A stretch of DNA of 64,000 nucleotides from Ginglymostoma cirratum (taxonomy: Eukaryota). The notes below the pieces were generated by a model, which had not been told where the DNA came from, did not search any database, and saw only the letters and a program-made list of their open reading frames with translations. Both the position numbers and the translations under genes were made by a program. Shown here in pieces: positions 12,186 to 54,402 of this stretch (position 1 is the first letter of the stretch; each line of letters begins with the position of its first letter). Where the stretch lies: assembly GCA_024137785.1 (NCBI GenBank), contig JAHRHZ010000079.1, forward strand, positions 8,597,535 through 8,661,534, given 5' to 3'.

Positions 12186-12204
12186 GAGGGAAAATGATTG
12201 TGGA

Positions 12205-12423
12205 CAAAAACAAAGTTGCTGGAAAAGCTCAGCAGGTTTGGCAGCATCTGTGAGGGAGAAAACAGTGTTAACATTGTGGGTCCAGCACCCTTCCTCAGTT
12301 CTGAGGAGCGGGCCCGAAACGTTAACTCTGTTTTCTCCTTCACAGATGCTGCCAGACCTGCTGAGCTTTTCCAGCAACTTAATTTTTGTTCTTGTTTACA
12401 GCATCTGCAGTTCTTTTGGCTTT
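12205..12423 (+). mobile_element. Fold-back (hairpin) Penelope-derived element with hammerhead motif and 15-bp TSD
   Basis: Inverted arms ~12205-12298 and 12301-12389 are centred on cctcag-tt-ctgagg. Perfect TSD gaaaatgattgtgga at 12190-12204 and 12424-12438. Confidence 0.85.
12297..12327 (+). ncRNA. Minimal hammerhead ribozyme motif (family C), stem II partly deleted
   Basis: agtt-CTGAGGA-gcgggccc-GAAA-c-GTT-aact with stem I agtt/aact. The opposite arm keeps stem II GGGT/ACCC but has lost GAAA. Confidence 0.6.
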
Positions 12424-12789
12424 GAAAATGATTGTGGAGCTCATGCAGAGACTTTTTTTTTGAGATGATAGAAAGGTCTGTGAGATCTGAAGGATAAATA
12501 GTGAAAATATCCTGCGTGACATTGCCACCAGTGTTGTCAGTCACCACAGCCTTGAAGCTGCTCTGCCAGGATAGCAAGCTGCCTTCCTTAAAGGGGGAGA
12601 GAGTGTGTGGACAAGCTGTTCCTCTGTCCATGCCAACCTACCAAGCAAGCCGAGAGCATGTTCATGAGAATCTTGTGAGGTGTTTCAGGAATGTAGGCTT
12701 CATGGTGGATAGCTAATAGCATGTGTTGTGGGTCAGTGAGGACAGTCATAGTGGTAAATGTGTGAGAAAGACATTCGAAAGAACCTTAA

Positions 12790-12888
12790 TTCTGAGGATG
12801 GGTCACTGGACCCAAAATGTTGACTCTGCTTATTCTCCGTAGATGCTGCCTGACCTGTTGAGTTTTTCCAGCAGTTTCTGACTTTGTT
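12790..12888 (+). mobile_element. Penelope-derived terminal repeat fragment beginning at a decayed hammerhead (family C)
   Basis: CTGAGGA-t-GGGT-cactgg-ACCC-aaaa-tgtt, followed by agatgctgcctgacctgttgagtttttccagca. Confidence 0.7.
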
Positions 12889-13648
12889 TGACAAGGAGGT
12901 TTATTGATGTGTCGTGCAGTGATTCGGTGAATGGATATTCATTTTCTATATACAGATGCTCTCTAATCTCTTCCTTTTGTCAGCAAAGTAGCTGCCTCAA
13001 TGACCTTCTGCTGCCAGAGCTAAAGAGGAAGTTCATCCTCCTGGTGATTATCTCCAGTGCAGGATCACTAAAATTTGGTGCCCCATCACTGGTTACTTAA
13101 GCTGTATAATCAGAACAGATTCCCTGACGTGTGAAGCCAGAATGCATTTCTCCTTTTAACAGCCTCTGGCTGCCTTTAAGTACTGTCAGAGAAGCCCCGA
13201 GTTCCAATTTAGTTCCAGTGACATCCTTCCTTCATTTTAAGAAATGATGGGAGTTCTGTGTCACTTATGTACAGGAGACCCAATGTAACTTACATGTATG
13301 CACACACATAACTGGCCACCTGTATGATTGAGGACCCCAGAGGGTGGACATGCCATGCCCGAGAGCTGCTGAATGGTCAGAGGTTGGCAGCTTGCCATTG
13401 GAAGCAGTATCACTGGAAACAGTGGCTGCTCTAGATAAAGATTCAAAGCCTTCAGCGGAGCTCTTCTCTGGATCTCTGGACCAAGGTGAGTACAGTGGGT
13501 TCAGTTTCAGGGAATTGTTACCAAAAAGAGAGAGAGGATGGATCAAATGCAAGGGCAACTTTCTGGAAGACCCACAGAGATGGACGTGAGTCCTGTTAAA
13601 TTCCCGATTCGCTACTAAAGTTGTGCTGGCTCATAACCCTATCGCACA

Positions 13649-13677
13649 GAGATAAAAGGTACTGCAGATGCTGGAGA
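13649..13677 (-). mobile_element. 29-bp ultra-truncated Penelope 3' end insertion with 8-bp TSD
   Basis: gagataaaaggtactgcagatgctggaga is identical to 28994-29022 and is flanked by atcgcaca at 13641-13648 and 13678-13685. Confidence 0.85.
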
Positions 13678-13704
13678 ATCGCACAATTGGCTTTTAAGTT
13701 TTTG

Positions 13705-14028
13705 TTCATTCACAAAATGAGGCATCTCTGGCTAGGCCAACATTTATTGCTCACTCCTGATTGCCCAGAGGCCATTAAGCGTTATTTCTGTGGGTCTGGG
13801 GTCACATGTAGGCCAGACCAGGTAAGGACGGAATTTCCTTCCGCCAAGGACATTAGAGAACAATGTGTTTTTCTAACAATCAACAGTAGATTCGTGGTCA
13901 TCATTAGACTCTTACTTCCAGATTTTTATCAAGTTCAAATTCCACCATCTATCATGGCAGGATTCGATGCTGGGTTCCTAGAACATTAATAGGTCTAGCA
14001 ATAATACTACTAGATCTTTGCCTCCCCT
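13705..14028 (-). mobile_element. tRNA-derived SINE with MER131-like tail
   Basis: Aligns with 56197-56539 and 47965-48320; tail gggcaat...gcaataaatg.tggcctagccag. Confidence 0.8.
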
Positions 14029-15169
14029 AAGTGATTCCTTGATGAGCTTAAAAGGCAAAATACAGCAGATGCTCAGTCTGAAACAAACACAGGGAATGTG
14101 GGAAAAACTCATCAGGTCTGGCTCCAGCAGGCTCCACTAAACTCAGGGCACTATATCTAGCTCTGCCACATCCCTAAAGACCAGCAGTCAGTGAGTAGCA
14201 TGCTAAACAATATTTACTTACCATGTCCTCTCACTGAAAAACAGGCATTTGGATGTAAAATCAGACAATATTCAGCCTGTCCTATTGATAATTAAAATTG
14301 AAATATTATAATGATCATGATCACTAATAATTGTGTTCGTACTCAATATAAATTTTGGGATAGGAAATGGAGAAGGACTCCCACATGTTTTAAATCAAAG
14401 CTTAAAAGATATAGCAGTAGATAATTTCAAACACTGCTGTTTAAGTGCAGAATGCTCACATGGATTTGTGAAGGCTGATTAAACATACATGTGGAAGAAT
14501 TTCCTTTAATCTTATTTGTATGGATGTCTGTTAGTCTAGAACACAGAGGTCACTGTGACAAATCTGAAGCACTTTTATCTTGTTCTGGTCTGGTAACTGT
14601 CACTTTAAATCTGGCACCAATACTTGACATTTGAACCAGTCATGTGCAGCCTCTGATCTGACGGTTTCATTATATTTCAGATTGTTTCCCTAGTAACCCC
14701 AATGAGAAGAAATGTATCACAGTATTTTCAATATTTACGGAGTTTTTAATTAGTTCAGTTATGACAGTCTATTTTTTTAAACAATGAGACTGCCAGTCAT
14801 GCATTTCTAACAACTCTTAGAAACAGGCTGGGAACTGGATAGAAGAAAATACACTACACTACTGAGCGCATTTGAATCAAAGTGACTGGGAATTTTGGAA
14901 AGACTCAGTTGGAATTGAGTTCAATATTTTACATGAGGCCAGAAGGAGGGGAACTATGTGCATATAATTCGGCAGTTGAGACATGGATTAGCTTTTCGAT
15001 TCATGATTCTTTGCCATATCCACCATCAAGGAGGCATATGTTAGGACTTGGCATATAATTCTATATGGTTATGAAAAGCACCAAGGGTGTACCTACACCA
15101 CATGAATTGCAGCAGTTCAAGAAGGCAGCCCATCACCACTGGCTCAAGTGCAATTATGCATGTGATGTT

Positions 15170-16905: not shown

Positions 16906-16909
16906 ACGA

Positions 16910-17260
16910 GTGCATTATTGGGAGATCCCACGTGGTCACTCATCGCGTTCTGGATGAAGCCCGTTGGACAGAAGTTCAGCATCGCAATACCTTCACAACC
17001 AATGAAAGAGGATTGCTTCCAACTTCTGCAGCCCTCAGGTCTTGCTGCAGCATCTGGCCTGGGATATAACAGAGACTGTGTTAATATTGTGCCTCGCTCA
17101 TCCTCACGATATATAGTCAGGAACAAAAATCGCTGGTCCTCCTGCAAAAACAAAAGAAGGGTCCTATGGCTGCACCCTCTCCTTGACCTGGGCTCTCCTT
17201 GGCCTCCGTGGCAGTCTGCTGCTGTACCTGGGTTTGCTGTCAGCTCTGGTCCTCCTGCGT
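16910..17260 (-). mobile_element. PIF/Harbinger transposase N-terminal remnant
   Basis: Minus-strand frames give LQQDLRAAEVGSNPLSLVVKV..AMLNFCPTGFIQNAMSDHVG, matching HARBI1-type LPVxVKVxAALNFYATGSFQ...GD..GIS. Confidence 0.65.
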
Positions 17261-17487
17261 CCACCGTTGCCATTTGAGGGAGGGAGCCGCAGCAACAAAC
17301 ATCCTGCTTTCTCAATTCTGAGATTCATCATTTTTTCAAGCTCATTCATTATTCTTTGCAGCTTAACCTTTTGGAACCTAATATCAATGGCTATAATGCT
17401 CAATGTGAGAGTAGAAAACTGTCTTTTACACACACTTGTGTTTCCTTTCAGGTCTTTGTATCATTTTTCATAACATTATTCATTTAG

Positions 17488-17572
17488 AATTATAGAATCC
17501 CAACAGTGTGGAAGCCCATCTTGATCCCATTTGGCCCACCAAGTTTACATTTACCCCCTGAAAAGCATCCCT
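17488..17572 (-). mobile_element. 3' tail fragment of an HE1 SINE or CR1
   Basis: tagaatcccaacagtgtggaag...ggcccaccaagt matches the SINE tails at 7705 and 52215. Confidence 0.55.
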
Positions 17573-19260: not shown

Positions 19261-19264
19261 CCCT

Positions 19265-19650: not shown

Positions 19651-19758
19651 GTTAATTGGAAAGTGGATTCTGATCAGAAAAAAATATTGCCATGGAGAAT
19701 GCTTCACCTATCTGCTGACAGACAGGATTTTGTTTAAATTCAAACCAGTCAAACTAAT

Positions 19759-19887
19759 AAAAAATAAAAGAACTGCAGATGCTGTAAATCAGAAACAAAA
19801 ATAGAAATTGCTGGAAAAGCTCAGCAGGTCTGGCAGCATCTGTGGAGAGCAATCAGAGTTAATGGTTCAGATCGAGTGACCCTTTCT
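19759..19887 (-). mobile_element. Penelope-derived terminal repeat (family C) with 13-bp TSD, truncated at the hammerhead core
   Basis: TSD cagtcaaactaat (19746-19758) and cagtcaaaccaat (19888-19900). Minus strand begins ctgagaaagggtcactcgatctgaaccatt, a decayed hammerhead. Confidence 0.8.
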
Positions 19888-20257
19888 CAGTCAAACCAAT
19901 GCCTTTTTCTCCTAAACAAAGCTTGGGCAACAGCCATTTGCGATGCATCCCTAGGTAGATGCCACTATTGGACCTGTTATGGAACAGTTTGGGCTAGGAT
20001 ATTTTGAAAGCACAATTTAATTTTGAAGAAGCTGATGTGGATTGGAAAGAGAGGATGAAGGGAATAACGATGAAACATCGTGGGGTTTACTAACATTATA
20101 AGTCATAGATTTTTTTTCCTCAACTGTAATTGTATTTGAAGAAACACATACACCAGGGACTGCTGGGGAATTATTCCAAGAGTAGATTTGTAGCTTGGGT
20201 TGTGGACTCCAGAGTTTAAATACCAGGTGGAAAAACACAACGGCGCTTCATCGGAGG

Positions 20258-20301
20258 CTGTACTGATGATGTTACCCAGCAGGGTAATGAAACGTCTGCG
20301 G
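20258..20301 (+). ncRNA. Minimal type I hammerhead ribozyme with intact core (family A), within a ~200-bp probable Penelope terminal repeat (~20134-20332)
   Basis: ctgta-CTGATGA-t-gttaccc-agca-gggtaat-GAAA-c-GTC-tgcgg. Stem II is 7 bp, stem I is ctgta/tgcgg with wobbles, stem III is the palindromic AC/GT, and the predicted cut is after C20296. Confidence 0.8.
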
Positions 20302-21089
20302 AAAAACAACAAACTAGCTCGGCGAGCCAACTAACTACAATTATGTCAACAGTTGGAAAAGTGGTCGCAGCCCGCATCAACAAGGATCAGAGGATTATCA
20401 GTGGCTGTTGGATTCTGTTAGGCACTGATTAATTCCAGGAAACTTCAGGTGACTTCTGACATACCAGTCAAACCATTGCACTTCCCGACATCAAGAACGT
20501 CATGAAAACTCTTCAGAATTTTTGTTAAGTTTTCATTTAATGAGTATGCAACTATGATTCAGCATGTTAAAATCTACTTCTAGAGAGCTGTTTTGACTCT
20601 TTAGTATATCATCCACGAATTTTATTTCCATTGCCAAACCAAAATATATTGTGGTTGAATTAGAACATCACTAATCTCTGCTGACAATGTTAATGACTAC
20701 TCTGAGGTTCCTGAATACAGGAGAGGGTGACAGACACAATTAGGCTTTTAGGATAATTAACATTGTTAATAAGTTGCCTACAATAAATTGAAATATAGTT
20801 TCAGGATGGTGACAAATTTACTGGTTACCGCCCAGCAAGTGCCTCATGAATTATTGCGTCAAAACTTCTGAGTAGTTACGATAACTATTGGATTGTCATT
20901 CTGCTCCCTTTTTTTTTTCTTACCTAGTCCAGGAGTTCTGCATTTCTGGCCCAGATATTCTAACCAGGCCTTTTGTGAAATGCAGAGCTTATCTGATCCA
21001 GAAGCCTTCCACCACAGCAAAGGATCAGAGTAGGGGACTAGTGTTACCTCTTTTTACTGCTGTTCCTGATATAGTTCATGGTTTAAACA

Positions 21090-21520
21090 TCCCAAAGGCA
21101 TGTTGACAAGCTACGGAGAGGTGATAAGGATGTAAGGTATGCGGGTGATGGGAGGAGAGGCTGGACACACTAGGACTTTCTTTCCTGGAGTGCAGAAGAT
21201 TGAGGGGGGACCTTATAGAGGTTTATAAAATCAAGAGGGGCATAGGTAAGATGAATAGCCAAGACCTTTTCCCTAGGTTAGGTGAGTCCAAAACTAGAGG
21301 GCATAGATTTAAGGTGAGAGGGGAATGATTTAGAAAAGCATGTGGAATGAACAACTAAAGGAAGTAGTAAAGGCAGGTACAATTACAACAGTTAAAAGAC
21401 ATTTGGACAGGTACATGAACAGGAAAGGTTTAGAGGGATACAGGCCAAGCACAGGTAAATGGAACTTAGTTTAATTTGGGAAACCTGGGCAGCATGGAGG
21501 AATTGGACCCTATAACTCTC
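21090..21520 (+). mobile_element. CR1 LINE 3' fragment
   Basis: gagggggaccttatagaggtttataaaatc...aaaactagagggcatagatttaaggtgagagg...aaagacatttggacaggtacatga, the same 3' region as 25990-26380. Confidence 0.85.
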
Positions 21521-22118
21521 TGCTTGGGTGAATGTTAGAATGGCAGCTGGGTGAGGTTGTATGCTGCAAAGCAGTGAAGGACTGATATGGCAGACAAGTG
21601 TTCTGGATGTAGGTGTTGGGTATATGAGGGGAATAAGGTCAGCAGGTGGGTGAGGGGGTTGGGCGGAGCAGGAGGTAATCAGCTCAGGATGGGTGTTAGG
21701 TCACATACTGGAGGAAGGTCAGCTCAGGGAGATCAGGCCAGGTGTTATGGGTCTGGTGTTGGGTTGGGATGGGATTGTATCGGGGGAGAGTTGAAAGAGT
21801 GTGGAGGGGCATCTCTCAGAAGTCACAGAGTCTGTGGTGAGATGATGGGGGAGGTGGGCATGTGTCAGTTTACCAGTTAACCAGGAGTTAGAGCTTTTAA
21901 TCCCTCTAACCTTTCCTGGGGAGCTATTGCAGTGAGTACAAACCCTGGGAAGGTTCTGACTCTCACCCAGAGTTAGAGTCTATTCCATGTAATAGCCAAT
22001 CAGAAGCAACAGACACCCATAGTGCAGTTTTCAGGATACAATGCTTTGATGACAACCTTCACATTGTACGTTGCATGTTGTACAAAACTACGTTTCACAA
22101 AATATAAATAAAGACAGT

Positions 22119-22852
22119 TCACCTGCACATCTGCTAATGTGGTATACCGCATCCGCTGTACCCGTTGTGGCCTCGTCTACATCGGGGAAACCAAGCGGAG
22201 GCTTGGGGACCGCTTTGCAGAACACCTACTCTCAGTTCGCACTAAACAACTGCACCTCCCAGTCACGAACCATTTCAACTCCCCCTCCCATTCCTCAGAC
22301 AACATGTCCATCCTGGGCCTCCTGCAGTGCCACAACGATGCTACCCGAAGGTTGCAGGAACAGCAACTCATATTCTGCTTGGGAACCCTGCAGCCCAATG
22401 GTACCAATGTGGACTTCACAAGCTTCAAAATCTCCCCTCCCGCTACCGCATCCCAAAACCAGCCCAGCTCATCCCCCGCTCCTTAACCTGTCCTTCCTCC
22501 GACCTATCCCCTCCTCCCACCTCAAGCCCCACCCCCATCTTCTACCTACTAGCCTCATCCCACCCCCTTGACCTGTCCGTCCTCCCTGGACTGACCTATC
22601 TCCTCCCTACCTCCCCAGCTACACTCACCTTTACTGGCTCCATCCCCGCCTCTTTGGCGGGTCTGTCTCCTCTCCACCTATCTTCTCCTCTATCCATCTT
22701 CTATCTGCCTTCCCTTCTCTCCCTATTTATTTCAGAACCCCCTTCCCCTCCCCCATTTCTGAAGAAGGGTCTAGGCCTGAAACATCAGCCTTCCTGCTCC
22801 TCTGATGCTGCTTGGCCTGCTGTGTTCATCCAGCTCTACATCTTGTTATCTA
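22119..22852 (+). mobile_element. Penelope-like element 3' fragment: GIY-YIG endonuclease C-terminus, pyrimidine-rich UTR and terminal repeat with hammerhead
   Basis: ORF 22139-22486 reads VYRIRCTRCGLVYIGETKRRLGDRFAEHL...HLPVTNHFNSPSHS...RRLQEQQLIFCLGTLQPNGTN (GIY-YIG with the CxxC typical of PLEs). Possible TSD aaagacagt (22110) and aaagacggt (22853). Confidence 0.93.
22756..22790 (+). ncRNA. Minimal hammerhead ribozyme motif (family B) in the Penelope terminal repeat
   Basis: CTGAAGA-a-ggg-tctagg-cct-GAAA-c-ATC. The GTC to ATC and ccc to cct changes are consistent with CpG decay. Confidence 0.7.
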
Positions 22853-22861
22853 AAAGACGGT

Positions 22862-23812: not shown

Positions 23813-26382
23813 ATGGTCACTCTGTTGGGACTGTATTATAGACCCCCAAATAGCCAACGGGTACTACAGGAGCAGATGTATAGAGAGAGATTACAGGTAC
23901 CTATAGGACTAATAGAGTGGTATCAGTTCGAGATTTTAAATTACCCCTGTATTGACCGGGCCACCCTGCGTGTAAAAGGCCCAGACAGGGTGGAATTTGT
24001 CAAATGTGTCCAGAAGGTTTCCTAAATCAATATGTAGATGACCCTATTCGGGAGGGTGCAACACTGGACCTCCTCTTCGGAAATGAGTTCAGGCAAGTGA
24101 CTGAAGTGTCATTTAGAGAGCACTTACAATCCAATGACCATAACTCTCTTAGTTTTAACATAGTTATGGAAAAAAGATAGGACAGGTCACAGGTTAAGGT
24201 GCTCAACTGGATCAAGGCCAATTTTGGGGTCATTGGGCAGGATCTAGCAGAAATCGACTGGATCAGTCTGTTTGAAGGAAAATGAATGACGGGCAAATGG
24301 GAGGCTTTTAAAAGTGTGATATCAAGAGTCCAGGGACAGTATGTCCCTGTTAGGGTGAAAGGAAAAGCTGGCGGATTTAGGGATCCCTAGCTGATGAGGG
24401 ATATTGAGGCTTTAGTCAGGAAAAAGAAGAAGGAATATATTGGGTTTAAGCTATTTGGATCAAGTGAATCCTAAGATGGCTATGAAAAATGTAAGAGCAC
24501 ACTCAAGCGGGAAATCAGAGGAGCAAAATTAGGGTATGAGATGGATCTGGCAATTAAGTTTAAAGATGATACCAAGAAGTTCTATAGCTATATTAAGAGT
24601 AAAAGGGTGGCTAGGGAGCGATTGGGTCCCCTTTAAAATCAACATGGCCATCTATGTGTGCATCCACAGGAGATGGGGGAGATTTTTAATGAATATTTCT
24701 CCTCAGTAAACGAGAAGAGAATCATGGATGCTAAAAAAAAATAAGGGAAACAAGTGGGAATGTTTTGGATGGCATACACATTACCAGAAAGAAGGTGTTT
24801 ACACCCTTAAAGTGCATTAAGGTGGATAAATCCCCTGGGCCTGATCAAGTTCATCCTCGGACATTGTAGGAGGCTAGGGAAGAAATTGCAGAGGTCTTTG
24901 CAGGGATTTTTGCTTCATCTTTAGCCACTGGTGAATTTCAGGAAGACTGGAGAGTGGCTAATGTCATACCATTGTTTAAGAAAGGTAACAAAGACAAGCC
25001 AGGGAACTCCAGGTCAGTGAGCCTGATATCAGTGGTAGGCAAGTTACTGGAGAGGATACTGAGGGACAGGATCAATCAAGATTTGGATAGGCAAGATCTG
25101 ATTAGAGTCAGCATGGATTTGTGCATGGGACGTTGTGTCTTCCAAATCTTTTAGAGTTTTTTTCAACTAGGTAACCAAGAGGATAGATGAGGGTAGGGCC
25201 ATGGATGTTGTCTATTTGGACTTTAATAACGCCTTTGACAAGGTCCCACATGACAAGCTGGTCATGAAAGTTAGGTAGCATGGGATCCAGGGAGAGCTAG
25301 CTAACTGGATTTAAAATTGGCTTGATGGTAGGTAGCTGAGGGTGATGGTTGAAGGTTGTTTCTCGGACTAGAGACCTGTGACCAGTGGTGTACCACAGGG
25401 GTCGGTACTGGGACTTTTGGTATTTGTTATTTACATAAATGATCTGGATGTGAATGTACAAGGCATGATTAGTAAGTTTGTGGATGAAACAAAACTAGGA
25501 GGTATCGTTGATAGCAAAGAAGGTTATCAAAAATGACCGAGGGATCTTGATCAGATGGGGAAGTGGGTTGAAGATTGGCAAATGCAAATCAATACAGATT
25601 AGTGTGAGGTGTTGCATGTTGAAATGTCAAACCAAGGTAGGACTTATTCAGTAAATGGTAAGGTCCTGAGGAGTGTTGTGGAACAGAGGGACCTAGGACT
25701 ACAAGTACATTGAAAGTGGAGTCACAGGTGGTGAAGAAGGCATTTAGCATGCTGGCCATCATTGTTTGAGGCATTGACTGTAGGAGTTGGAACATTATGC
25801 TACAGTTATATAATTCATTGGTGAGGCCGCACTTGGAGTATTGTATACAGTTTTGGTCACCCTGTTGTAGGAAAGACATAGTTAAACTGGAAATGTGCAA
25901 AGAAGATTTATGAGGATGTTGCCAGGACCAGTAAGCCTGAGTTATAGGGAGAGGATGGCCAGGATAGGACTTTATTCTTTGGAATGTAGGAAATGAGGGG
26001 TGACCTTATTGAGTCGTATAAAATCATGAGGGGCATAGATAGGATGAATGCATATAATCTTTTTCCCAGGGATGGTAAATTGAAAACTAGAGGGCATAGG
26101 TTTAAGGTGAGAAGTGATAGATTTAAGAAGGACCTGAGGAGCAACTTCTTCCCACAGAGAGTGGTGAGTGTATGGAATGGGCTGCCAGAGAAAGTGGTTG
26201 AGACAGGTACAATAACAACATTTAAAAAAAAAGTTTGGATAGGTACATGGACGGGAAGGGTTTAGAGGGATATGGACAAAATGCAGGTAGTTGGAACGAG
26301 GTGAGTGAGTATTATGGTCAGCATGGACCAGTTTGGGTTGAAGGACCTGTTTCCATGCTGTATTATTCTATGATTCAATGAC
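23813..26382 (+). mobile_element. 5'-truncated CR1 LINE (endonuclease, RT, 3' UTR) inserted into Gypsy gag
   Basis: LLGLYYRPPNSQR, ANVIPLFKKGNKDKPGN.R.VSLISVVGKLLERILRDRI, RGDLIESYKIMRGIDR, FFPQRVVSVWNGLP; tail attctatgattc. Confidence 0.95.
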
Positions 26383-26384
26383 TT

Positions 26385-28790: not shown

Positions 28791-29106
28791 ATGGTATGTT
28801 GATAAAGATATGTTTATGTATGTTGTTGAGTACTTCTTAAAATATTAGCGTCATATTCATTCAATACTTGCATGTGAGGGAACAATAAGGATGAAGGTGA
28901 TGCTTACATCTGTCTTTCTTTCCTGCTTCAGAATGAATGACTTTATTGAATGTTGTTCAACTGCATTAGATCATAGAACTATTTACAATGGCAGAGATAA
29001 AAGGTACTGCAGATGCTGGAGAATCCGAGATAACAAGGCGTGGGGCTGGATGAACACAGCAGGCCAAGCAGCATCATAGGAGCAGGAAAACTTGACGTTT
29101 CGGGCC

Positions 29107-29140
29107 TTTCTGATGAAGGGTCTAGGCCCGAAACATCAAG
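29107..29140 (+). ncRNA. Minimal hammerhead ribozyme motif (family B)
   Basis: ttt-CTGATGA-a-GGG-tctagg-CCC-GAAA-c-ATC-aag. The inverted arm preserves the ancestral gaaacGTCaag. Confidence 0.75.
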
Positions 29141-29182
29141 CTTTCCTGCTCCTATGATGCTGCTTGGCCTGCTGTGTTCATC

Positions 29183-29582
29183 NNNNNNNNNNNNNNNNNN
29201 NNNNNNNNNNNNNNNNNNNNNNNNNNNNNNNNNNNNNNNNNNNNNNNNNNNNNNNNNNNNNNNNNNNNNNNNNNNNNNNNNNNNNNNNNNNNNNNNNNNN
29301 NNNNNNNNNNNNNNNNNNNNNNNNNNNNNNNNNNNNNNNNNNNNNNNNNNNNNNNNNNNNNNNNNNNNNNNNNNNNNNNNNNNNNNNNNNNNNNNNNNNN
29401 NNNNNNNNNNNNNNNNNNNNNNNNNNNNNNNNNNNNNNNNNNNNNNNNNNNNNNNNNNNNNNNNNNNNNNNNNNNNNNNNNNNNNNNNNNNNNNNNNNNN
29501 NNNNNNNNNNNNNNNNNNNNNNNNNNNNNNNNNNNNNNNNNNNNNNNNNNNNNNNNNNNNNNNNNNNNNNNNNNNNNNNNNN
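29183..29582. other. Assembly gap (400 N)
   Basis: Run of N; the same 52 bp occurs on both sides. Confidence 0.99.
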
Positions 29583-32374
29583 AAACATCAAGCTTTCCTG
29601 CTCCTATGATGCTGCTTGGCCTGCTGTGTTCATCCAGCCCCGCGCCTTGTTATCTCTATTTACGATGGCATGTGGTTTTTCAAGGAGTGGTGAAGGTGGC
29701 GCCTACTGCCTCAGCCATTTCCTTCCATGGTGTCTGCACAATTCTTTTATCAACCTCCTTGCCTCTATCACCTTTAAAAAAGTATCTTCTCAATATTAAT
29801 TCTGCTAGTAGGCAATCTCTTCTGCTGCTCAATCTCCCTAAGGCTATGTCTCATGCTGACATTTCCACTGACCTTCCCTTCTTTCTGTGTGCTTCCCATA
29901 ACCATGCTCCTTTAACAAGCTGTAGCAGCATAACAATTGTTCTTGTTCTGAACTCTGTGAACCTCATACATAATTAAGAATACCACAGGATATTTTGGTA
30001 GTTTTCCATTGGTGTCATATAGACAGGCAGAAGTCTTGCATAGCTACCTCTCAACTAGCCTGAGAAAATTCCAGCCAGTAACATACAGGTTGTGAAAGTA
30101 TCCTTGGGTCATATCATTTGGTCCTAAATAAGTAAAATGTTATTATAAGAAAGGGGTCTTTGTGAAGCAATAGTGAAAGACATGAGCAAATTACAATAGT
30201 GTCACTGGAAAAGGCTTGAGCTTTTTTAACTGCCTTCAACATAAATGGGTCTTATTGTAATACTGAGTTAATTAATTCTCAGCAAAATGGTTAAATCAAA
30301 TGTGATATCTTTAGCAAAACATCTTTGTCACAGGAGGGATTGTAACAGCTATTGTCTGATTTGCCCAATCAGAAACTTGCCTTAACAGTATCAATGAAGG
30401 TTATCTCTTAGAACTTATACATATAGTGAGTTGACATACTCAATCTCGCTCCTGAATAAAAAAACAATTACAAGGTACCTTCGGACAAAAAAGCTTCTAG
30501 AGCATATTAATGCATTGAGCACTTGTAGAACTCTTTGTAGTTTTCTTATCCTATCATGCAAAAGTTAAAGATAGATAACTGGCACAATACCTGTGAGAGG
30601 ATAGCAGGAGATATTTACAAAGGAAAAATAATATGCTCTACGGGAATAAAGCTGATATGAGATGTATTGTTCTGCTGAACTTGACTTTTACCTCTCTCAC
30701 ATTAACGTAAAGGTAAAGGTCAGGGTCAGATTCATGATATTTTTCCTTAATCCATCAGATATTTATTTGTTGAGTATTTCTGATATGGAGAGTATTAAGA
30801 TGAAGTTAGGTAAGATATCTGGATGCTCTGTAGAAAAGACGAAAACAACGAAGATTGGAAAATAATTAGAAATAGCATGCAAGAGGTCAGAAATTTCTAG
30901 ATATTACAAAAGGCAAACATGTCAGCAAGCCTGGATACTCTTGCTGCTCAATTACTGGTCTATCTTTTATTATTTGCTTATGAAAATAAAGAAAGGCAAA
31001 AATGGACTTACAAAAGAGGAATCATTTTTAATACGTATGTTATGTTTTTTTCAGGATGTAACAGCTAGGATGGCTAAGGGAAAATGGGTTGTTGTAATGT
31101 GTTTGGACTTTCAAGAAACATTCCATAAGATGACAAAACAGAGATTATTACAGAAAATAAAGATTAAAGCTTTGGAGATAATATGACAGAATTGGAATTG
31201 TTAAGCACAGAAGAAGGCCATTCAGGCAGTCAGGACTGTGCCAGTTCCTAACAGCAGTAATTTACTTAGTGCCACTCTATCATCTTCCTCCTAGAACCCT
31301 GAATATTTATCCTTTTCAAATAACATAAGATATATTTCAGATATATTGACATTAAGAGTTGTTAAGGAGAGCAACAATAACTGAATCATCTCCCAGTTGG
31401 CAGCTCACAATTAGTAGGGTACAACAAGGGTCAATACTTGTGTCCCAGCTATTTATATTTGTTATTATCAAGTTTGGAGGGGTGAATAAGTTTATTTCTT
31501 TTCATTCCTGAGGTTGGTATAAGAGAGTTTGAATTTTTAAAAGTATGCAATTTCTCAGTTCAAGATGTGCTTGGCAATGTATAAAGTTATGAAGAAATGT
31601 ATCAGCCAGATTTTTTGACATAACATGTAAAAAGTTGATGTATTATTTAAAAGTAAATAACTCGCTCAAAAGTATATGTGTTATTAAATAGTAAAACCTG
31701 TCCTGAATCTTGCAATACTACACACTAATATCCACGTAAACAGACTAAATTGGAGGATAGTAAAAAGTGGAATTGGAAAAGTGTTCAAGCGAATAAAGAA
31801 AAGAATTATATGCTCTGATGTCCCTTTAGTTGGTTTGATGCACAATGATTACACAACCAATATCTACTACTTGTTTCTTCTGGAGACACTGCAATCAGTC
31901 ATTCTCTAGGATAGATGTTGTCGTCTTTAAGTTTCTTTTTATTATAAATTCTCTGTTGAAAGAGAACTAGCCTGTTCTATCCCTTGATACTATTCCCCTT
32001 TGGTTAGAAACACTCTTACAATGATAGTTCTGAAAAGTTCTTGCAGCACAGTGGTAGTACCACTTCCTCTCAGTCAGGATGCCTGGGTTCCGGAAGTATG
32101 TAATAACAATTCTGAACAGGGTAATTTAGAAAATATCTTTAATGGTAGTTCTTCCCAAGTGGATTTTTGATCATATGACAGCTGGCAGTTGGCACACAAT
32201 GGAGGAAATCCATTTTAACAAAGAAATTTTAGTCACCCATTGTCAAAGCTATCAGGATGCCATTGAAACAGATGGGGACACCTTCTGTGCCTATTTTTGT
32301 ATAATGGGTTTCTATAGGTTTCCTTTTGCCTCTGGCCATTTGTGCAAGTGAGTTTTTGTCAGTTTTGTCTATCA

Positions 32375-32530: not shown

Positions 32531-32699
32531 TGTAAATTAGATCCTTATGAATGTTTTTGAGGCATCAATTTTGTAATTCTCTGAGGAGCTTGGCTTGTAA
32601 AAACATGGGTTCTGCAGCCATTGCAAGACACAGTATCCTGGATAATTTAATGGTGTTTTCTCCCAAACAAAATTCCCAGATATTAAATCAGTCTCAGTC

Positions 32700-39757: not shown

Positions 39758-40290
39758 AGTTTCTGGTTGCCACATTACCAAAAGGACGTGGATGCTTTGG
39801 AGAGGGTGCAGAGGAGGTCACCAGGATGTTGCCTGGTATGGAGGGCGCTAGCTATGAAGAAAGGTTGAGTAGACTAGGATTATTTTCATTAGAAAGACGG
39901 AGATTGAGGTGGGACCTGATTGAAGTCGACAAAATCACGAGGGGTATAGACAAGGTGGATAGCAAGAAGCTTTTTCCCAGAGTGGGGGACTCAATTAGTA
40001 GGGGTCATGAGTTCAAAGTGACAGGAGGAAAGTTTACGGGAGATATGCGTGGAAAGTTCTTTACGCAGAGGGTGGTGGGTGCCTGGAACACGTTGCCAGC
40101 GGAGGTGGTAGACGCAGACACGTTAGTGTCTTTTAAGATGTATCTGGACAGGTACATGGATGGACAGGGAGCAAAGGGATACAGACCCTTAGAAAATAGA
40201 TGACAGGTTTAGACAGAGGATCTCGATCGGCGCGGGCTTGGAGGGCCGAAGGGCCTGTTCCTGTGCTGTAATTTTCTTTGTTCTTTGTTC
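39758..40290 (+). mobile_element. Relatively young 5'-truncated CR1
   Basis: Open ORF2 C-terminus MLPGMEGASYEERLSRLGLFSLERRRLR...FFTQRVVGAWNTLP, retained CpGs, (ttctttg)n tail and a short attat duplication at the flanks. Confidence 0.95.
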
Positions 40291-41009: not shown

Positions 41010-43102
41010 AAGACAGTTGGAGGCCTTTAAAAGTGTGGCAGCTAAAGTTCAAGGTCTATATGTTCCTGTGGGGTTGAAGGGCAAGGCAGGATGACAAGAA
41101 AAATAAATGCTTTTACCAGAAAAAAAAGAGGCATGGCTCTGGAACAGGCAGCTTGGATCAAGGGAATCCCTGGAGGTATACAGGGGATACAAGATGTTTA
41201 CTGAAGAAGGAAGTCAGGGGGTTGAAGAGGGGGCATGAGATACCTTTGGCTGAGAAGATTAGGGTGAACCCAAAGAGATTCTGTAAGTGTACTAAAGGAA
41301 AAAAAGAATAACTAGAGAGAGAAAGGTCCCCTCAAACACCAAAGTGGACATGTATGTGTGGAATCACAGGAGATGGGCAAGGTCCTCAATGAATATTTCT
41401 CCTCAGTGTTTACAGTGGAGAATGACATGAAGACTTGGGAACTTGGGGAAGTTAGTGGTGATATCTTGGGGACAGTCTACATTACAGTAGAGGAGGTGTT
41501 GGAAGTATTAGAATGTATGAACTTGGATAAATCTCCTGGTCCTGATCAAATATATTCAAGAACTCTACAAAAGGCTGGAGAAGAAATTGCAGGGGCCATG
41601 GCTGATATATTTGCATCGTCATTAGCCACGGACAAAACCCCAGAAGACTGGAGGGAGCAAATAATAAGTACTTATTCAAGAAGGGTTACAAAGAAAAACT
41701 AGGAAGAAAAACAAATAGACCAGTAAGCTTAACATCGGTGGTAGGTATGTTACTTGAGAAGATTCTGAGGGATAAGATATACATACATTTGGAAAGACAG
41801 GGTTTGATTAGGAGATGTCAGCATGGCTTTGTGCGTGGGAATTCATGCCTCACAAATTTGTTAGAGTTTTTTGATGAAGTGACCAGGAAGGTTGATAAGG
41901 GGAGGGCAGTAGATGTAGTCTATATGGATTTCAGTGAGGCCTTTGATAAGGTTCCATGTGGAAGGCTGCTCTGAAAGATAAGATTACATGGAATCCAGAG
42001 CAAGTTGGCAAATTGGATGCACATTTGGCTTGATGGTAGGAAGCAGATAGTAATAATGGAAGGATGCTTGTCGGACGTAGCCTGTGACTAGTGATGTGTC
42101 TTAAGGGTCGGTACCGGAGGTATTGCTGTTTGTTATCTATATTGATGATTTGGTTTGAGAATATACACGGCATGGTTAGTAAATTTTCATGGATGACACT
42201 CAAATAGGTGGTATCGTGGATAATGAGGAAGGTTATCAGAAATTGCAGCAGGATCTTGATCAGTTGGGGCAGTGGGCCGAGAAATGGCAAATGGAGTTAA
42301 TATAGATAAGTGTGAGATGTTGCACTTTAGAAAGTCAGATCAAGGTCGGAGTTTCACGGTGAATGATAGGGCCTTAAGGAATGTAGTGGAGCAGAGAGAC
42401 CTTGGAGTTTAGGTGCACAGTTCTCTGAAAGTGGAGTCACAGGTAGGAAGGGCAGTGAAGAAGGTTTTTGGCACACTGGCCTTCATCAGTCAGGGCATTG
42501 AGTATAAAAGTTGGGAAGTTATGTTGCAGTTGTACAGGATGTTGGTGAGGCCACACTTGGAATATTGTGTTCAGTTTTGGCCACCTTGCTATATGAAGGA
42601 TGCTATTAAACTGGAAAGAGTGCAGAAAAAATTTACAAGGATATTGCCAGAACTCAGGGAACTGAGTTGTAGGAAGAGGTTGGACAAGCTAGGACATTTT
42701 TCTTTAGAGTGAAGGAGAATGAAGGGGAATCTTATAGAAGTATATAAGATCATGAGAGACATGGTTAGGGTGAATGCATTCATTCTTTTTCCCAGGGTTG
42801 GGGAATCGAGGACGAGAGGGCATCAATTTAAGGTAAGAGGGGAAAGAATACATGGGAACCTGAAGGGCAACTTTTTTCCATAGAGGGTGGTTTGCATATG
42901 GAATGAGCTGCCAGCATAAGTGGTTGAGGTGGATACATTAACAACATTTAAAAGACATTTGGACGAATACATGGATAGGAAAGATTTAGAAGGGTATGGG
43001 CCAAATGCAGGGAAATGGGGTTAGCATGATGAACGTTTTGGTTGGCATGGACCAGTTTGGGCTGAAGAGCCTGCCTCCATGCTATAAGACTCTATGACTC
43101 CA
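41010..43102 (+). mobile_element. 5'-truncated CR1 LINE (RT to 3' UTR)
   Basis: LNEYFSSVFT, DKSPGPDQI, QHGFVRGNSCLTNLLEFF, VYMDFSEAFDKVP, LVRPHLEYCVQFW; tail gactctatgactc. Confidence 0.95.
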
Positions 43103-46539: not shown

Positions 46540-46670
46540 TAAAAGCAAAATACTGCAGATGCTAGAGGTCTGAAATACAAACAAAGTGCTGAAAAACTCA
46601 GCAGATCTGGCTGCGTCTGTGGAGAGGGGAACAGAGTTAACATTTTGAGTCCAATCTGATTCCTCTTCTT
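46540..46670 (-). mobile_element. Penelope-derived terminal repeat fragment (family C-like)
   Basis: aaaatactgcagatgctagagg...aaactcagcagatctggctgcgtctgtggagagggaacagagttaacattttgagtcca. Confidence 0.75.
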
Positions 46671-47964
46671 CTGAGTTGGCACCATGTTGGAATTGAGTTA
46701 TAGGATAGGTGGAGCATGAACTGTTATGGAAGGTTCAGGGGCATGAGGGGTTTGGGTAAGTGATATGTATTGGCATGGAGGTCATGAGAGGCCATTAGTG
46801 GATGCGGACTATGAGTTAGTGTGAGATAGCATGTATGGGCATGGTGTATGGTTAAGGATTGCGAGGGAAGAGTGTTACAGGGAGAATGGACTTTTAAATA
46901 GTACACGCTAGTCCTCAGCAGTCAAAATGTCCACCTGCATGCAGATGTGGTGGATCTGATTCCATCCTTCTCACGTGTGCAACACCCGCACCCCTTTCCC
47001 TGCTACCCCCAGCCATCCCCCCCAATCCTCCACCCAATATCATCACTCAGAGTTACTTTCCCAAAGAGGGTGTGAAAGCTGGAAAATTTCCCAACTCTCA
47101 TTACATGACTTGGGAAGAATACCCAGGCTAGGGTATCTGGGATATATGAAAATGTAGCTACCATGAATATAGCAGACAGCCATGATGACTGAGGGACACA
47201 TTGGTTGACATATTTGAGAAATTGTGAAAAATATCCATCCGCGTTACATGGGATTGCCATTTCCATTGTCAAGTGTCTTGTATGACCAGTATGCGCTGAG
47301 ACTCCTGAGGGGTACATGAGGCTTACTATTTCCAGTGCTGCCTCCTCCAGATAGTATCAGGTTGATTGGCCCAACCACAGCAGCATCATTCAACACATCT
47401 TGCAAGTTTTGTGAGCCTTTCCAAAAGGTTGAGATGGCAATGATGTTTGAATTGTCTATCCTCCTTCACCTAGTCCAGGAGGACAGGACCATAAACTGTG
47501 GTGGTCCTCAGTGATGCCCTCTTGTCAATTCTTCTCCTGAGTAAGGATGTCTGATTTCTCGATGATTCTACTGACCACATGCTCTGACAGCCTAAAGGAG
47601 ACTGTATGACCATTCGATCTCCTCAACTCATGGGAATGCTACTGCCTACAGAGTTAAGGACTCTGTCACCTGGGAGTTAACCTGTCACCTGGGAACCACT
47701 CATCATTATCAAGTCATTCATGACATTGGACACATATTCTCCAGACCACTTTTCTTCTCCTGACCTCTCTAGTCAAACATATTCTTTGGAGTTTCTGAGC
47801 AGATTTTATCCGCCTGACACAAGGAACAATAACTCTTGCCTCTCGTAAACTGAATTGGTTAACACATCAAGAAAGGCATTAGACAACCTTGGAGCTTCCC
47901 ATTGATGCCTGTCCATGCCACTGCTGGGCCTCTGCAAACTCATCTGTGCCATTTTCTTGTTGGA

Positions 47965-48320: not shown

Positions 48321-48427
48321 TTAAGCAAGAATAAACCACCTGGCAGTTGCTTACCTTTTCGAAAGGCCATTGATGACTGGATGCCACCTTTCACTTTGCG
48401 ATGCTCCATGTTCATTCATGGAATCCA

Positions 48428-48772
48428 TTCATTGAATCCTTACAGTGTGGAAACAGGGCATTCAGCCCAACAAGTCCAAACCATCTCTTCAAAGAACATC
48501 CCACCCAGACTCATCCCCCTGCCCTAACCCTGTAACCCTGCATTTCCCACAGGTAATCCATCTAACCTACACATCCCTGGATACTATGGACAATTCAGCA
48601 TGACCAATCCAACTAGCCTGCACATCTTTGGGCCATGGGAGAAAACCAGAGTACCAGAAAGAAGCTCACGCAGACACAGGGAGAATGTGCAAACCCGACG
48701 AGGCTGGAATTGAACCCAGGTCCCTGGCACTGTGAGGTAGCAGTGCTAACTACTGAGTCACTGTGCGCTCCC
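48428..48772 (-). mobile_element. HE1-type SINE
   Basis: Same family as 7698-8014 and 52214-52539. Confidence 0.88.
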
Positions 48773-51399: not shown

Positions 51400-51620
51400 T
51401 TGCCCCAGATATGGCAAAGCTGGGAATTTGGTACCGCAGGCAGGGACCTTGATGTCGCGGTAGAAGGTGTGGTGCAAAGATAGATCATCCCCTTCCTCAG
51501 GACCAGGCCATAATATCAGATTATGCTAACCTGGTCTGAAGTTGCCATCCAGGTTGGTGCAGTTTCAGCCATCTCGAGGAGTACGCAGCACTGTAAGAAG
51601 AAGGTCAATGACCTCACTCT
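51400..51620 (+). pseudogene. Harbinger Myb/SANT-like DNA-binding protein remnant
   Basis: LTWSEVAIQVGAVSAISRSTQHCKKKVNDL matches the WxEVAxxVxAxxxxxRTxxQCxKKxNDL trihelix motif. Confidence 0.75.
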
Positions 51621-52213
51621 ATCCTTGCTACTGTATCAACCTCCCATCCAAGCCTCCAGCTCTGCCACACTCACCAATGTCTGCAACACCTTCCCCACTC
51701 ACCATCCCCCACACTGAAACGTGACACCATTAACCCTGTCACCTCTTAGTGCTGCCTACTCACTCAGCATACATCCCCATCAGCATTAAAGGTAATAACT
51801 GATCACTCACTTTCATCTCCCGTAATACCTGCCACTCTCATTTGAGGAGGAACATAGCCACAATGGTGCAGAAATGATTGATGGGCTGTTCGATATTCTG
51901 CTTCTAACACTTTGAGGAGAGCACCCTGAGTGGCTGACTGACAGTATCCAAGCCCCTGGACAGGTAATGGATGCTGCCCTTGACTTACTGCCCATGGTTT
52001 TATGTCAGCTCTAAATGACAAGACAGTACTCAGTACAGTGACCCTGGTATTGACAGGACAAGGAGCAAAAAGGAAAAGCAAAAGCAAAGCAGGGGTGCTG
52101 TGAGCATCCTGTGAATGTGAATGGTGTCTAACCGATCAAACAAACATCCTGTGGATATAGCTTGGTGCACGTTCCTGAGCACATGTGTTTACTGCAGCTT
52201 TACATTCCAAGGT

Positions 52214-52539
52214 AGAATAGAATCCCTACAGTGTGGAAACGGGCCCTTCAGCCCAATAAGTCCACACTGACCCTTGTAGAATCCCACCTAGGCCCATCCT
52301 CCTACAACCCACCCAATCTACACATCCTTGAACACAATGGACAATTTAGCATGGCCAACACACCTATACTGCACATCTTTGGACCGTGGGAAGAAACCGG
52401 GGTACCCGGAGGAAACCCACACACACACAGGGAGAATGTGCAAACTCCACACAGACAGTTGCCCAAGGGTGGAATCGAACGCGGGTCCCTGGCTCTGTGA
52501 GGCAGCAGTGCTAACCACTGAGCCACCATGCCGCCTGTG
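52214..52539 (-). mobile_element. HE1-type SINE
   Basis: A box tggctcagtgg, B box gttcgattcc, V-domain and (attct)n tail. TSD ccaaggt at 52207-52213 and 52540-52546. Confidence 0.92.
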
Positions 52540-52621
52540 CCAAGGTTCAGCACTAAAATGCAGTCATATCACAAGTGGATTGGAGATGTGTTATGAGAGT
52601 TTTTAAAGGGTCTTAGCGCAG

Positions 52622-52840
52622 GTCATAGAATTCCTGAGATGTCATTCAGCCCATCCCTTGGAACCCTCCAAAGACCACCCCATCCAGGCCTAGCCCTTGA
52701 CCCTATTCCTTTATTACCCATGGCTAATCCACACAGCTTGCACATCCCTGGACTCTACAGGGCAATTTCTTAAGACCAATGCACCTGGCCAGCTCATCTT
52801 TGGACTTTTGGAGGAAACCCAATCACCCAGAGGAAATCAC
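52622..52840 (-). mobile_element. Decayed partial HE1-type SINE
   Basis: cacatccctggactctacagggcaattt...catctttggacttttggaggaaacc. Confidence 0.7.
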
Positions 52841-54208
52841 CGAGTTCACAGCAAACAATTCGGTAGAAAGATGCAAAGCGATAAGGCAGGACGTACCGCT
52901 AATAAGCAATAATCTCTATAAGAGACAAACTTGCCACTGTATCACAAGTATCTCGCCTTGACTTCCAGAATGGTTAAAAGATGGAACAAGTTATTTCTGA
53001 CATTGAGCTAGACCTTGAATTAAATCTCCGATGATTCTGCCACATTTCAGAACCCAAAACAATTATAAACTATATTGGAAGAGGAGGTGCAAAAAGAGGT
53101 TTTGCAGACACTTGTTTGATTTGAAATTGATTAAGTGAAGGCAATACATAGAATGGGTAATAGGCTGCATGTACATTGGTAAGGCATTGCTGCAGTCAAC
53201 GCTGCTCTTTGAAACACCTAGCACCAGTCATTGACATGTTGCTGCCAGAACACTGTGCATAGAGGAGCTGCAAACAAGCTCACAGATGGGGCCAGGCTAT
53301 ATGTTAGTGCTCCACGCTTGCTCTCTGAGCACGCCCCACTTTGTACTTACTTTGATGTTCACAGTGCAGGGGAGGAGGGCTCAGTGCAGCATGATTGTTA
53401 GGATAATTATGCCATAGGACCATGACACCAGGGTTATGGTGGGAGATAATTTTATAACTTAAAGAGCTGTATGGAAATGTTTGGAAGCTTAGTAACGATA
53501 GGCTCAACAGGGATGACATGGAAGAAAAGACTGTTATTGTTTGGGGGGAGGTTGGAGGAGCCTGTTAATTACCAGGTTAAGCCTGCATCTCCCTGTGCCA
53601 AGTGTGAATTCTGATACCTTCTATCCTCCATGCAAAATGCAAAATGGCTGCAACTACACATGGAGTGATCAAAGCAAGTGTTTTTTTCTGCCTAAGCATG
53701 CAACCTGCACTTGTAAGTGATATGAGACGATTCAAAGGCAATTGCATTAATCACAATTTTCACAATTTGAGTTGGTGTCATTTGTAATCATGGTACCCTG
53801 CATGTGAAATGTTTGCAGTATCAAACTGAATGGGATACAAATCCTGGTCACATGCAATCTTCACTATGTCATTGGTCATTACAGATTGATCATAGTCATC
53901 TCTGTGACCCAAAGTAACCTCAGATGGCTTTAAAAGTGGCAAGCCACAATTTACAAAGACAATTGAAGATATCGTAGGTTGCATAAGGGCACGGAAATGA
54001 TAACTTCTCATTTTGATCAACACCATGCTCTTATGTACAATGCTGCCTTTCTTGAGTAACGTGGGAGTGGGGGGAAACAAAGTATCAGGTAATCATACAG
54101 AACTTACAATCTCCTTATTCATAAGAATAAGGTCACATATATTAAATGTCGATGTAGAAACAGTCCATGGCAATTCTTGTTGGAGTGCTCCATGTCCCCC
54201 AATTGAGG

Positions 54209-54402
54209 AAGTCAGAAGTCACACAATACCAGGTTATAGTCCAACAGGATTATTTGAAATCACATGTTTTCAGAGCTCACTTCACCTGGCGAAGGGGCTG
54301 CGCTCCAAAACCTTGTGATTCCAAATAAACCCATTGAACGATAACCTGGTGTTGTGTGACTTCTGACTTTGTCCACCCCAGTCCAATACTAGCATCTCTA
54401 CA
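54209..54402 (+). mobile_element. Fold-back element with decayed hammerhead motif (family D), probably Penelope-derived
   Basis: Inverted arms aagtcagaagtcacacaataccaggttat... and ...ataacctggtgttgtgtgacttctgactt (54209-54369) plus a unique 3' tail. Centre reads tcac-CTGgcGA-a-ggggc-tgc-gctcc-aAAA-cctt-gtga. Confidence 0.75.

Follow-up and report, generated by a model that had tools for sequence, protein, structure and literature searches.

The window analysed here, the whole of a 64,000-nucleotide stretch of the Ginglymostoma cirratum genome, contains the end of a GIY-YIG endonuclease ORF and a series of minimal hammerhead motifs that fall into four sets, A to D (Table 1). The motifs are real, mostly in broken copies, and exceed chance, a strict descriptor giving three matches in the window against 0–2 (mean 0.23) across 30 dinucleotide shuffles. 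Each set has the same build (that is, a minimal type I hammerhead and an optional tail of about 35 nt, with a GIY-YIG ORF joined upstream), and the descriptor matches and profile search bear out the identification as PLE-borne minimal type I hammerheads made in an earlier, sequence-only reading. We take the motifs to be the 3′ repeat ends of three PLE lineages, mostly decayed, each with a minimal hammerhead; in B, C and D this likely stands at the very start of the element RNA (probability roughly 0.8). Since both the motif class and the PLE that hosts it have already been published (passages of Cervera & De la Peña 2014, PMC4209133), the find itself is ordinary and the window set comprises further members. 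An Rfam search of the window returned no hammerhead family at E 1; three weak matches (two miRNA precursors and RRE) were rejected, as they fall far under the gathering scores and reflect inverted repeats only. Minimum-free-energy folds of six window monomers formed stem II in five cases and a full hammerhead only roughly, for D, but are uninformative because the model gives the core no score. The family majorities of A, B, C and D form complete minimal hammerheads.

Table 1 Hammerhead-bearing PLE fragments and related features of the window
Feature	Position	Strand	Details
Old C fragment (+21 to +121)	9636..9730	+	
Family C fragment (+19 to +133)	12049..12158	-	Profile match
C inverted arm	12204..12306	-	Core 12298-12292, decayed GAAA
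C sense arm with tail	12295..12417	+	Core 12301, 7-nt stem II deletion
C solo short copy	12786..12889	+	Core 12792, GAAA to AAAA
B tail-only fragment (+96 to +128)	13648..13679	-	
Old C fragment (+56 to +132)	14054..14122	-	
C solo short copy with tail	19760..19890	-	Decayed core (~19888 site)
Tail-only inverted A piece (+80 to +108)	20179..20206	-	Head-to-head with A copy; a 6-bp AATTAT repeat, which may be chance, flanks the unit
5′-truncated pLTR end, family A (putatively Penelope/Poseidon-type)	20203..20341	+	-60 to +78 from core C3; relatives at 30 loci, 91-94%
Intact minimal hammerhead of A copy	20258-20301	+	Predicted cut after 20296
GIY-YIG endonuclease C-terminus, 5′-truncated B element	22112..22486	+	Pfam PF01541, E 1.1e-5; 89-92% identity to at least 149 other genome matches, among the matches listed
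Family B copy: EN end, pyrimidine-rich 3′ UTR, core 22759	22123..22858	+	Profile match; 2-bp stem I with GAAACATC; stops at proximal tail site; flanked by a near-identical 9-bp repeat
Tail-bearing inverted B arm (+15 to +129), half of a head-to-head pair	28992..29107	-	Pair has 13-bp target-site duplication, 28980-28992 and 29657-29669
B sense arm, core 29110	29107..29661	+	Stem I 3 bp, GAAACATC; 400-N gap inside; 29583-29661 repeats the arm, likely a single B copy read on both sides of the gap
C solo short copy with tail	46541..46678	-	Decayed core
D inverted arm (to +85, without tail)	54209..54294	-	
D sense arm with tail	54276..54405	+	Core 54286 decayed, stem I intact

Seven sites had been named in the sequence-only reading, and the motif is intact at one of them (20263); the CUGANGA/GAAA core and NUH triplet, taken alone, are complete at four (20263, 22759, 29110 and 12301). 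The description of A at 20263 was accurate throughout (CTGATGA, one extra T, a 7-bp stem II GTTACCC/GGGTAAT, GAAA-C-GTC and a 5-bp stem I), as were the core, the extra A and the 4-bp stem II (all present) given for B at 22759 and 29110. The GUC triplet ascribed to B is absent from its sense copies and left only in the inverted arm 29107-28992; both window B copies read GAAACATC and have therefore lost the ACGU palindrome for dimer helix III. That CUGANGA and GAAA are kept at all sites does not hold at 12792 (AAAA replaces GAAA), ~19888 (minus strand; CTGAGAA, GAAC and ATT) or 54286 (CTGGCGA and AAAA, with stem I TCAC/GTGA intact). At 12301 the core is kept and 7 nt of stem II are deleted, and the gggt/accc stem assigned to this site belongs to its minus-strand inverted partner (core 12298-12292, ACAA for GAAA). 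The window also holds inverted partners (12204-12306, 28992-29107 and 54209-54294), a C copy (46541-46678), an inverted A tail (20179-20206) and other fragments that had gone unlisted.

The proposed link between B and a GIY-YIG ORF is borne out by the position of ORF 22112-22486 and the 22759 motif within one profile match (22123-22858). The longest frames recovered have 884 aa (a B frame carrying RT PF00078 and GIY-YIG together, with the 5′ part in another frame) and 687 aa; GIY-YIG scores over the cut-off in C and just under it in A and D (E 1e-3), with an Atlas value of 0.96 in A. No intact full-length ORF was found for any family among 25 long stretches and 30 ORF-start loci. The B pLTR flanks the ORF on both sides, as hammerhead and tail lie 3′ of EN and, in 18 of 30 copies, also directly 5′ of the UTR and ATG. 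Between RT and EN, a CX2-5CxxC linker is found in one frame each of B, C and D and is absent in all three A frames. This linker suggests that B, C and D are Neptune/Nematis-type elements, with Neptune preferred over Nematis from vertebrate occurrence only (Neptune and Poseidon being the only PLE clades that occur in vertebrates), and the C-terminal EN without the linker motif suggests a Penelope/Poseidon-type placement for A.

Four unrelated families had been proposed, which we reduce to three lineages because B and C belong to one. Rather than sharing only the terminal tail, B and C agree at 44 of the 65 nt that separate cut site from tail (z 6.0), and their endonuclease regions cross-match in the profile search. 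The flanks of A and D are indeed unrelated to the others (z 0.1–1.2 in all five pairs with A or D).

Across the genome, the eight subfamily majorities all have CUGANGA, GAAA and NUH, except where CpG decay has affected two old ones; stem II is paired in 82–100% of copies per position, and the extra nucleotide before it is present. There is no loop 3, and the palindrome 15.2-16.2 is ACGU in the A, B and C majorities and AGCU in D. Stem I measures 5 bp in A, 4 bp in C, D and one B subfamily, and 2–3 bp in the remaining B subfamilies. Common non-CpG subfamily variants spare all 35 core positions and affect 4 of 34 positions in the stems, 6 of the 17 free positions and 22 of the 150 in the flanks. 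The covariation of stems claimed earlier is seen across lineages and once within C, where, of 99 copies, 68 have G-C and 13 have A-U at stem II pair 2, a compensatory change that probably arose in a single event. We suggest that selection in active masters would keep the ribozyme fold and that the dispersed genomic copies would be by-products rather than a working ribozyme network; overlapping promoter sequence could account for part of the core conservation.

Copies end at two 3′ sites about 35 nt apart. Among head-to-head pairs, the tail is on exactly one arm in 78 of 85, and a target-site duplication (9–18 bp) accompanies 49 of 85 against 1.3 in swapped-flank controls; for solo short copies the figure is 17 of 82 (control, 0.7). 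The 5′ ends of B, C and D pile up 2–10 nt before the core (65 of 140 at -6 to -2 in B, against 6.9 expected; 44 of 115 in C; 11 of 30 at -10 to -5 in D), and the same is seen within the unbiased sample on its own (15 of 36 in B; 7 of 29 in C); none of five short A copies starts at the hammerhead edge. When ORF-linked B copies with a detectable 5′ repeat are considered (n = 18), nine start at -3 to -5 and one at the cut site. The predicted cut lies at +28 in B and +30 in C. Short and ORF-linked copies alike begin some 31 nt upstream of the cut, 3–5 nt ahead of the core, and given this upstream start most copies were likely templated by uncut RNA. Two readings of the pile-up, a splice acceptor and an artefact of diverged UTRs, were rejected on the ground that the flanks upstream have no exon in common; the lack of an AG there in B further counts against the splice acceptor. 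The copy starts carry putatively initiator-like words. The 18 sequencing runs listed were all contigs; four of them (three only guessed to be RNA) cover the B 5′ region, give no start, end or strand, and support no conclusion.

We tentatively propose, with somewhat less than even confidence, that this genome has among the densest hammerhead loads on record, that Neptune-type RNA begins at stem I, that nicked strands prime at two tail sites and that cDNAs run off uncut RNA, with few copies coming from cut RNA. As part of the reading favoured above, the RNA start would lie about 4 nt upstream of the core in B and C and about 7 nt upstream in D. The element endonuclease would nick both DNA strands, and RT would start at the two tail sites, as was shown in vitro for an anole element (passages of PMC11167929), with one site used per strand; for B, the predicted RT starts are at about +96 and +130. 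Starts in the 5′ repeat would run off the RNA end to give solo or palindromic copies of 100–135 nt, and starts in the 3′ repeat would give long, randomly truncated ones. The template would nearly always be uncut, and the ribozyme would cut rarely, as a dimer or with protein help.

The sharp 5′ end could instead have been made at the DNA level (by an endonuclease cut, by microhomology at the T-rich word or by antisense self-priming) and would then be uninformative on the RNA start. Junctions often share 1–3 T or A, the anole endonuclease prefers ATT (passages of PMC11167929), and parts of PMC3846280 attribute head-to-head PLE repeats to self-priming on an antisense template; we nevertheless consider this origin unlikely, as D piles up at a C/A-rich word with a different offset, ORF-linked and short B copies share the pile-up base, and other T-rich tracts in the repeat lack such a peak. 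It is also doubtful that a substantial fraction of the template RNA is cut by the hammerhead in vivo, with starts at the scissile bond as a record. Nine of 41 B ends between -18 and +40 do lie at -2 to +1 of the cut site, five exactly on it (2.8 expected, p 0.0014), and 6 of 29 remain once query-selected B loci are excluded (p 0.012); however, the unbiased sample alone gave 0 of 8 and 0 of 10, C gave 3 of 23 (p 0.2) and D 0 of 4, two of the nine B junctions are doubtful, such starts make up at most about 6% of short B copies, and no cut-site reads were found for the anole element (passages of PMC11167929).

It seems improbable to us that the hammerhead-like fold has no catalytic function and is retained, as a relic, for protein binding or as a promoter signal, even though stem I of B has only 2–4 bp, eight of nine Xenopus dimers showed no cleavage and catalytic mutants of the anole element still insert in vitro (passages of PMC11167929); the catalytic positions, including the NUH triplet, are all spared and N7 is variable, which is the pattern expected of catalysis, and the anole motif cuts once protein is added (same passages). 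The sequence-only reading suggested a retrozyme-like system; we regard as very improbable an active system of this kind, in which dimeric hammerheads would cut tandem units that then spread as circular RNAs. The very high copy number, the retention in the majorities of a palindrome (ACGU or AGCU) that would serve dimer helix III, and the report of retrozymes in the one chondrichthyan sampled (passages of bioRxiv 2026.07.22.740005) would fit such a system. Against it, 97 core copies include no same-strand pair within 1 kb and 15 opposite-strand pairs, Tandem Repeats Finder detected no array in the window, pair orientations are 27 head-to-head, 0 tail-to-tail and 3 direct partial tandems, and copy starts precede the core instead of lying at the cut; rare arrays elsewhere in the genome are possible.

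The motifs, which we place at PLE ends, resemble the minimal hammerheads of metazoan PLE pLTRs, as described in passages of PMC4209133, in core, extra nucleotide before stem II, G10.1 pair, lack of loop 3, palindromic 15.2-16.2, several families per genome and occurrence mainly as single motifs from truncated PLEs with some opposite-strand pairs; they differ in the short stem II of B, C and D (4–5 bp) and stem I of B (2–4 bp). A is like the anole Poseidon element PAc, as presented in passages of Frangieh et al. 2024 (PMC11167929), in having no zinc-finger linker, two 3′ ends bounding a tail, and an ATG where stem II begins, its frame open through the tail, whereas in B the ATG is about 37 nt past the tail and outside the hammerhead. 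In the CX2-5CxxC linker before a C-terminal GIY-YIG, B, C and D resemble the Neptune/Nematis-type PLEs in passages of Craig et al. 2021 (PMC8557442) and Arkhipova et al. 2013 (PMC3846280). Also common to the PLEs of those passages and the copies here are an inverted 5′-truncated copy at the 5′ end, a 30–40-bp tail at one end and an initiator-like word in the pLTR; the target-site duplications are 8–10 bp there and 9–18 bp here, and neither counts nor a 5′ pile-up at the hammerhead edge appear in the same passages. Non-LTR retrozymes (passages of Cervera & De la Peña 2020, PMC7229834, and bioRxiv 2026.07.22.740005) share the type I hammerhead, relation to PLE ends and high copy number, but are same-strand tandem repeats, whereas the copies here occur singly or head-to-head and run on into PLE ORFs.

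The window, with 10 core-spanning copies against 11.4 expected from a genome sample, is not special in density, contrary to what had been implied, and the very large genome-wide load that had been inferred is likely, at hundreds of thousands of copies. Of 100 sampled stretches of 10 kb, 44 were all N and were excluded, so that densities rest on 56 stretches (546,608 nt, about 0.55 Mb) that may be unlike the rest of the genome. This sample holds about 180 hammerhead-derived ends per Mb, with a range of 139–217 core copies per Mb, which extrapolates to roughly 770,000 core-spanning copies in the genome. Some 9–80 copies per Mb, or 40,000–350,000 in all, still fit a hammerhead descriptor, against 4,000 in coelacanth and 9,000 in Xenopus (passages of PMC4209133), the descriptors being different; 126,247 motifs are given for axolotl (passages of PMC7229834 and bioRxiv 2026.07.22.740005). 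The suggestion that such a system is under-catalogued stands for the published record reached by our literature search and not beyond it: the search, which left out subscription journals, Repbase and Dfam, yielded no publication that treats shark PLE hammerheads or the 5′ pile-up, and the supplements of PMC4209133 and bioRxiv 2026.07.22.740005 may list such families.

Compared with published vertebrate densities, the load is several-fold to tens of fold higher, with the proviso that descriptors differ. Family B is young (30 of 30 loci are 99–100% identical over 96 nt) and therefore a practical experimental substrate. On how PLEs insert and what role the hammerhead plays, these copies give countable predictions: an RNA start at -4, one RT start per strand and rare cutting.

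A descriptor requiring CTGANGA, an optional extra base, stem II of at least 3 bp, GAAA, two bases and UH matched the window three times (20263, 22759 and 29110), compared with 0–2 times (mean 0.23) in each of 30 dinucleotide shuffles. The hammerheads proposed by the sequence-only reading are therefore real, but their cores are mostly damaged: every part is intact only at 20263 (family A), at both family B sites (22759 and 29110) the sequence is GAAACATC and the ACGU palindrome is gone, stem II at 12301 (family C) carries a 7-nt deletion, and core mutations are found at 12792, ~19888 (minus strand) and 54286. An Rfam search of the window did not find a hammerhead. Profiles built from genome copies identified 10 core-spanning copies in the window, plus fragments, with three head-to-head pairs among these copies. 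Each set is the 3′ end of a Penelope-like element (PLE) and is accompanied by numerous relatives in a genome of 4.36 Gb; the family majorities are complete minimal hammerheads (A, stem II of 7 bp, GUC; B, 4 bp, GUC; C, 5 bp, GUU; D, 5 bp, AGCU palindrome, CUU).

Across 56 readable 10-kb stretches at round coordinates (of 100; 546,608 nt), we obtained 153 profile matches, 97 of them core-spanning (A 4, B 56, C 30, D 7); the reversed sequence gave none. This density, 177 per Mb (bootstrap 139–217), corresponds to 11.4 per 64 kb, so that the window with its 10 copies is average for the genome. The very large ribozyme-bearing load that had been predicted is supported, at about 770,000 core-spanning copies by extrapolation, some of which may be counted twice owing to assembly gaps beside palindromes. 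Descriptor-positive motifs numbered 44 (80 per Mb, about 350,000 per genome), or 42 after splitting at N runs versus 1–4 in ten shuffles; demanding the palindrome, stem I of at least 3 bp and stem II of at least 4 left 14 (about 112,000 per genome, 55,000–184,000), and stem I of at least 4 bp left 5 (about 40,000, 8,000–86,000). Published counts, made with descriptors that differ from ours, are 4,000 minimal hammerheads in coelacanth and 9,000 in Xenopus (PMC4209133); for axolotl, the number of type I motifs is given as 126,247. Young head-to-head B pairs often coincide with 400-N gaps (window 29183–29582; L206, L234, L235, L237 and L243), which suggests that B palindromes break assemblies.

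The four families had been taken as distinct; however, B and C agree at 44 of the 65 nt that separate the cut site from the tail (z 6.0), with homology extending over the whole end, whereas the other five family pairs reach z 1.2 or less, leaving three lineages. Of the 35 core positions in B, C and D, none carries a common non-CpG variant; 4 of the 34 in stems do, as do 6 of the 17 that are free (N7, loop II) and 22 of the 150 in the flanks (core versus free, p 0.0006; core versus flank, p 0.016). Pairing is preserved by all four variants in the stems: two are wobble-to-Watson–Crick changes, and the others make up one double change in C stem II (G-C in 68, A-U in 13 of 99 copies), where the partner is the site most linked to the variant position. 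The proposed covariation holds in part: family A shows a second double change, in 2 of its 48 copies, but such events are few. Given also that the variant thresholds were our own choice, the spared core and kept pairing support, rather than prove, selection on the fold. The decay of single copies is neutral and falls mostly on CpG sites.

A GIY-YIG frame lies upstream of, and continuous with, the ends of all families, extending to A, C and D a linkage previously noted for B. Family B has RT and GIY-YIG in a single frame, preceded by a repeat copy, a short UTR and an ATG; the N-terminal part of this ORF contains an Ala/Thr/Pro-rich repeat stretch whose length differs between copies (L311, L290, L304 and L299). 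B, C and D share with Neptune and Nematis the CX2-5CxxC linker given for those groups in PMC8557442, and family A, in its ATG at stem II and missing linker, resembles anole Poseidon. Other features of the window are tabulated.

Other features of the window
Feature	Positions	Remarks
Head-to-head pair, family B	28992-29661	13-bp target-site duplication
Old fragment, minus strand	9126-9412	weak match to B/C endonuclease region, E 3e-4
LINE-like repeat (one family), fragments with RT remnants	183-1890, 21200-21470, 24600-26380, 39760-40290, 41300-43100, 61200-62350	presumably CR1
Pfam RVT_1 match (RT remnant of the LINE-like repeat)	41606-41971	E 3e-6, below cut-off
Dispersed ~300-nt repeat family, tRNA-like stretch at end	7708-7983, 48432-48739, 52218-52504	probably a SINE

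The genome sample held 27 head-to-head pairs, no tail-to-tail pairs and 3 direct partial tandems, and core pairs within 1 kb were opposite-strand in 15 cases and same-strand in none. Neighbours therefore cannot dimerise on one transcript, and the sampled copies are not arrays of the retrozyme-like kind that had been envisaged. Across all loci analysed, a 9–18-bp target-site duplication accompanies 49 of the 85 head-to-head pairs (control mean 1.3). In every family the copies stop at either of two 3′ sites, some 35 nt apart, the difference being the PLE tail, which has been tied to two RT start sites (PMC11167929). The tail is on exactly one arm in 78 of the 85 pairs, in agreement with a second analysis, and we infer that RT starts from a single site on each nicked strand; the family A copy of the window bears an inverted tail-only piece, and pieces of this kind were seen with 5 of 186 proximal-ended copies. 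At 3′ junctions, 6 of 30 young B copies run past the tail into one shared sequence (L229, L233, L235, L237, L241 and L249), duplicated upstream at L233. It may be a favoured insertion site within another repeat, sharing several bases with the tail end.

The 5′ ends cluster at the hammerhead 5′ edge (B 65/140, C 44/115, D 11/30, A 0/5), also in the unbiased sample of stretches, and because the upstream flanks are unrelated sequence or an inverted arm, this represents true truncation. Among 30 B copies chosen by ORF start, 18 have a detectable 5′ repeat: 9 begin at −3 to −5, 2 further upstream and 7 inside the repeat, with the cut site as the start of one of the 7. The peaks are 31–37 nt upstream of the scissile bond, so most templates were probably uncut. 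A word that we take to match the initiator consensus encloses the edge of each peak, which falls just within it. We read the peak as a putative RNA start, although it is possible that it is made at the DNA level. Starts at the cut site are weakly in excess in B (9 of 41 ends, p 0.0014; 6 of 29 once query-selected loci are removed; 0 of 10 when the unbiased sample is taken by itself), and no such excess was seen in C or D. The 18 sequence runs were all contigs, which do not display RNA ends; the 4 compared with the B 5′ region cover it. In D, an AATAAA at 54323–54329 (+38 to +44), some 10 nt downstream of the predicted cut site, is 94–98% conserved per position.

PMC4209133 describes the motif, its PLE host, the presence of several families in one genome and pairs on opposite strands, and the qualitative anatomy of such insertions is given in PMC8557442 and PMC3846280; the window motifs are thus of a known kind. 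In the openly accessible literature that we searched, neither these families nor the clustering of 5′ ends was found described. Of the window's three head-to-head pairs (12204–12417, 28992–29182 and 54209–54405), two gave weak miRNA-precursor matches in Rfam. If transcribed, head-to-head pairs would make 60–100-bp hairpins, and at such density could be a large source of dsRNA. The value of the finding lies in the size of the load and in a proposed copying mechanism that can be tested.
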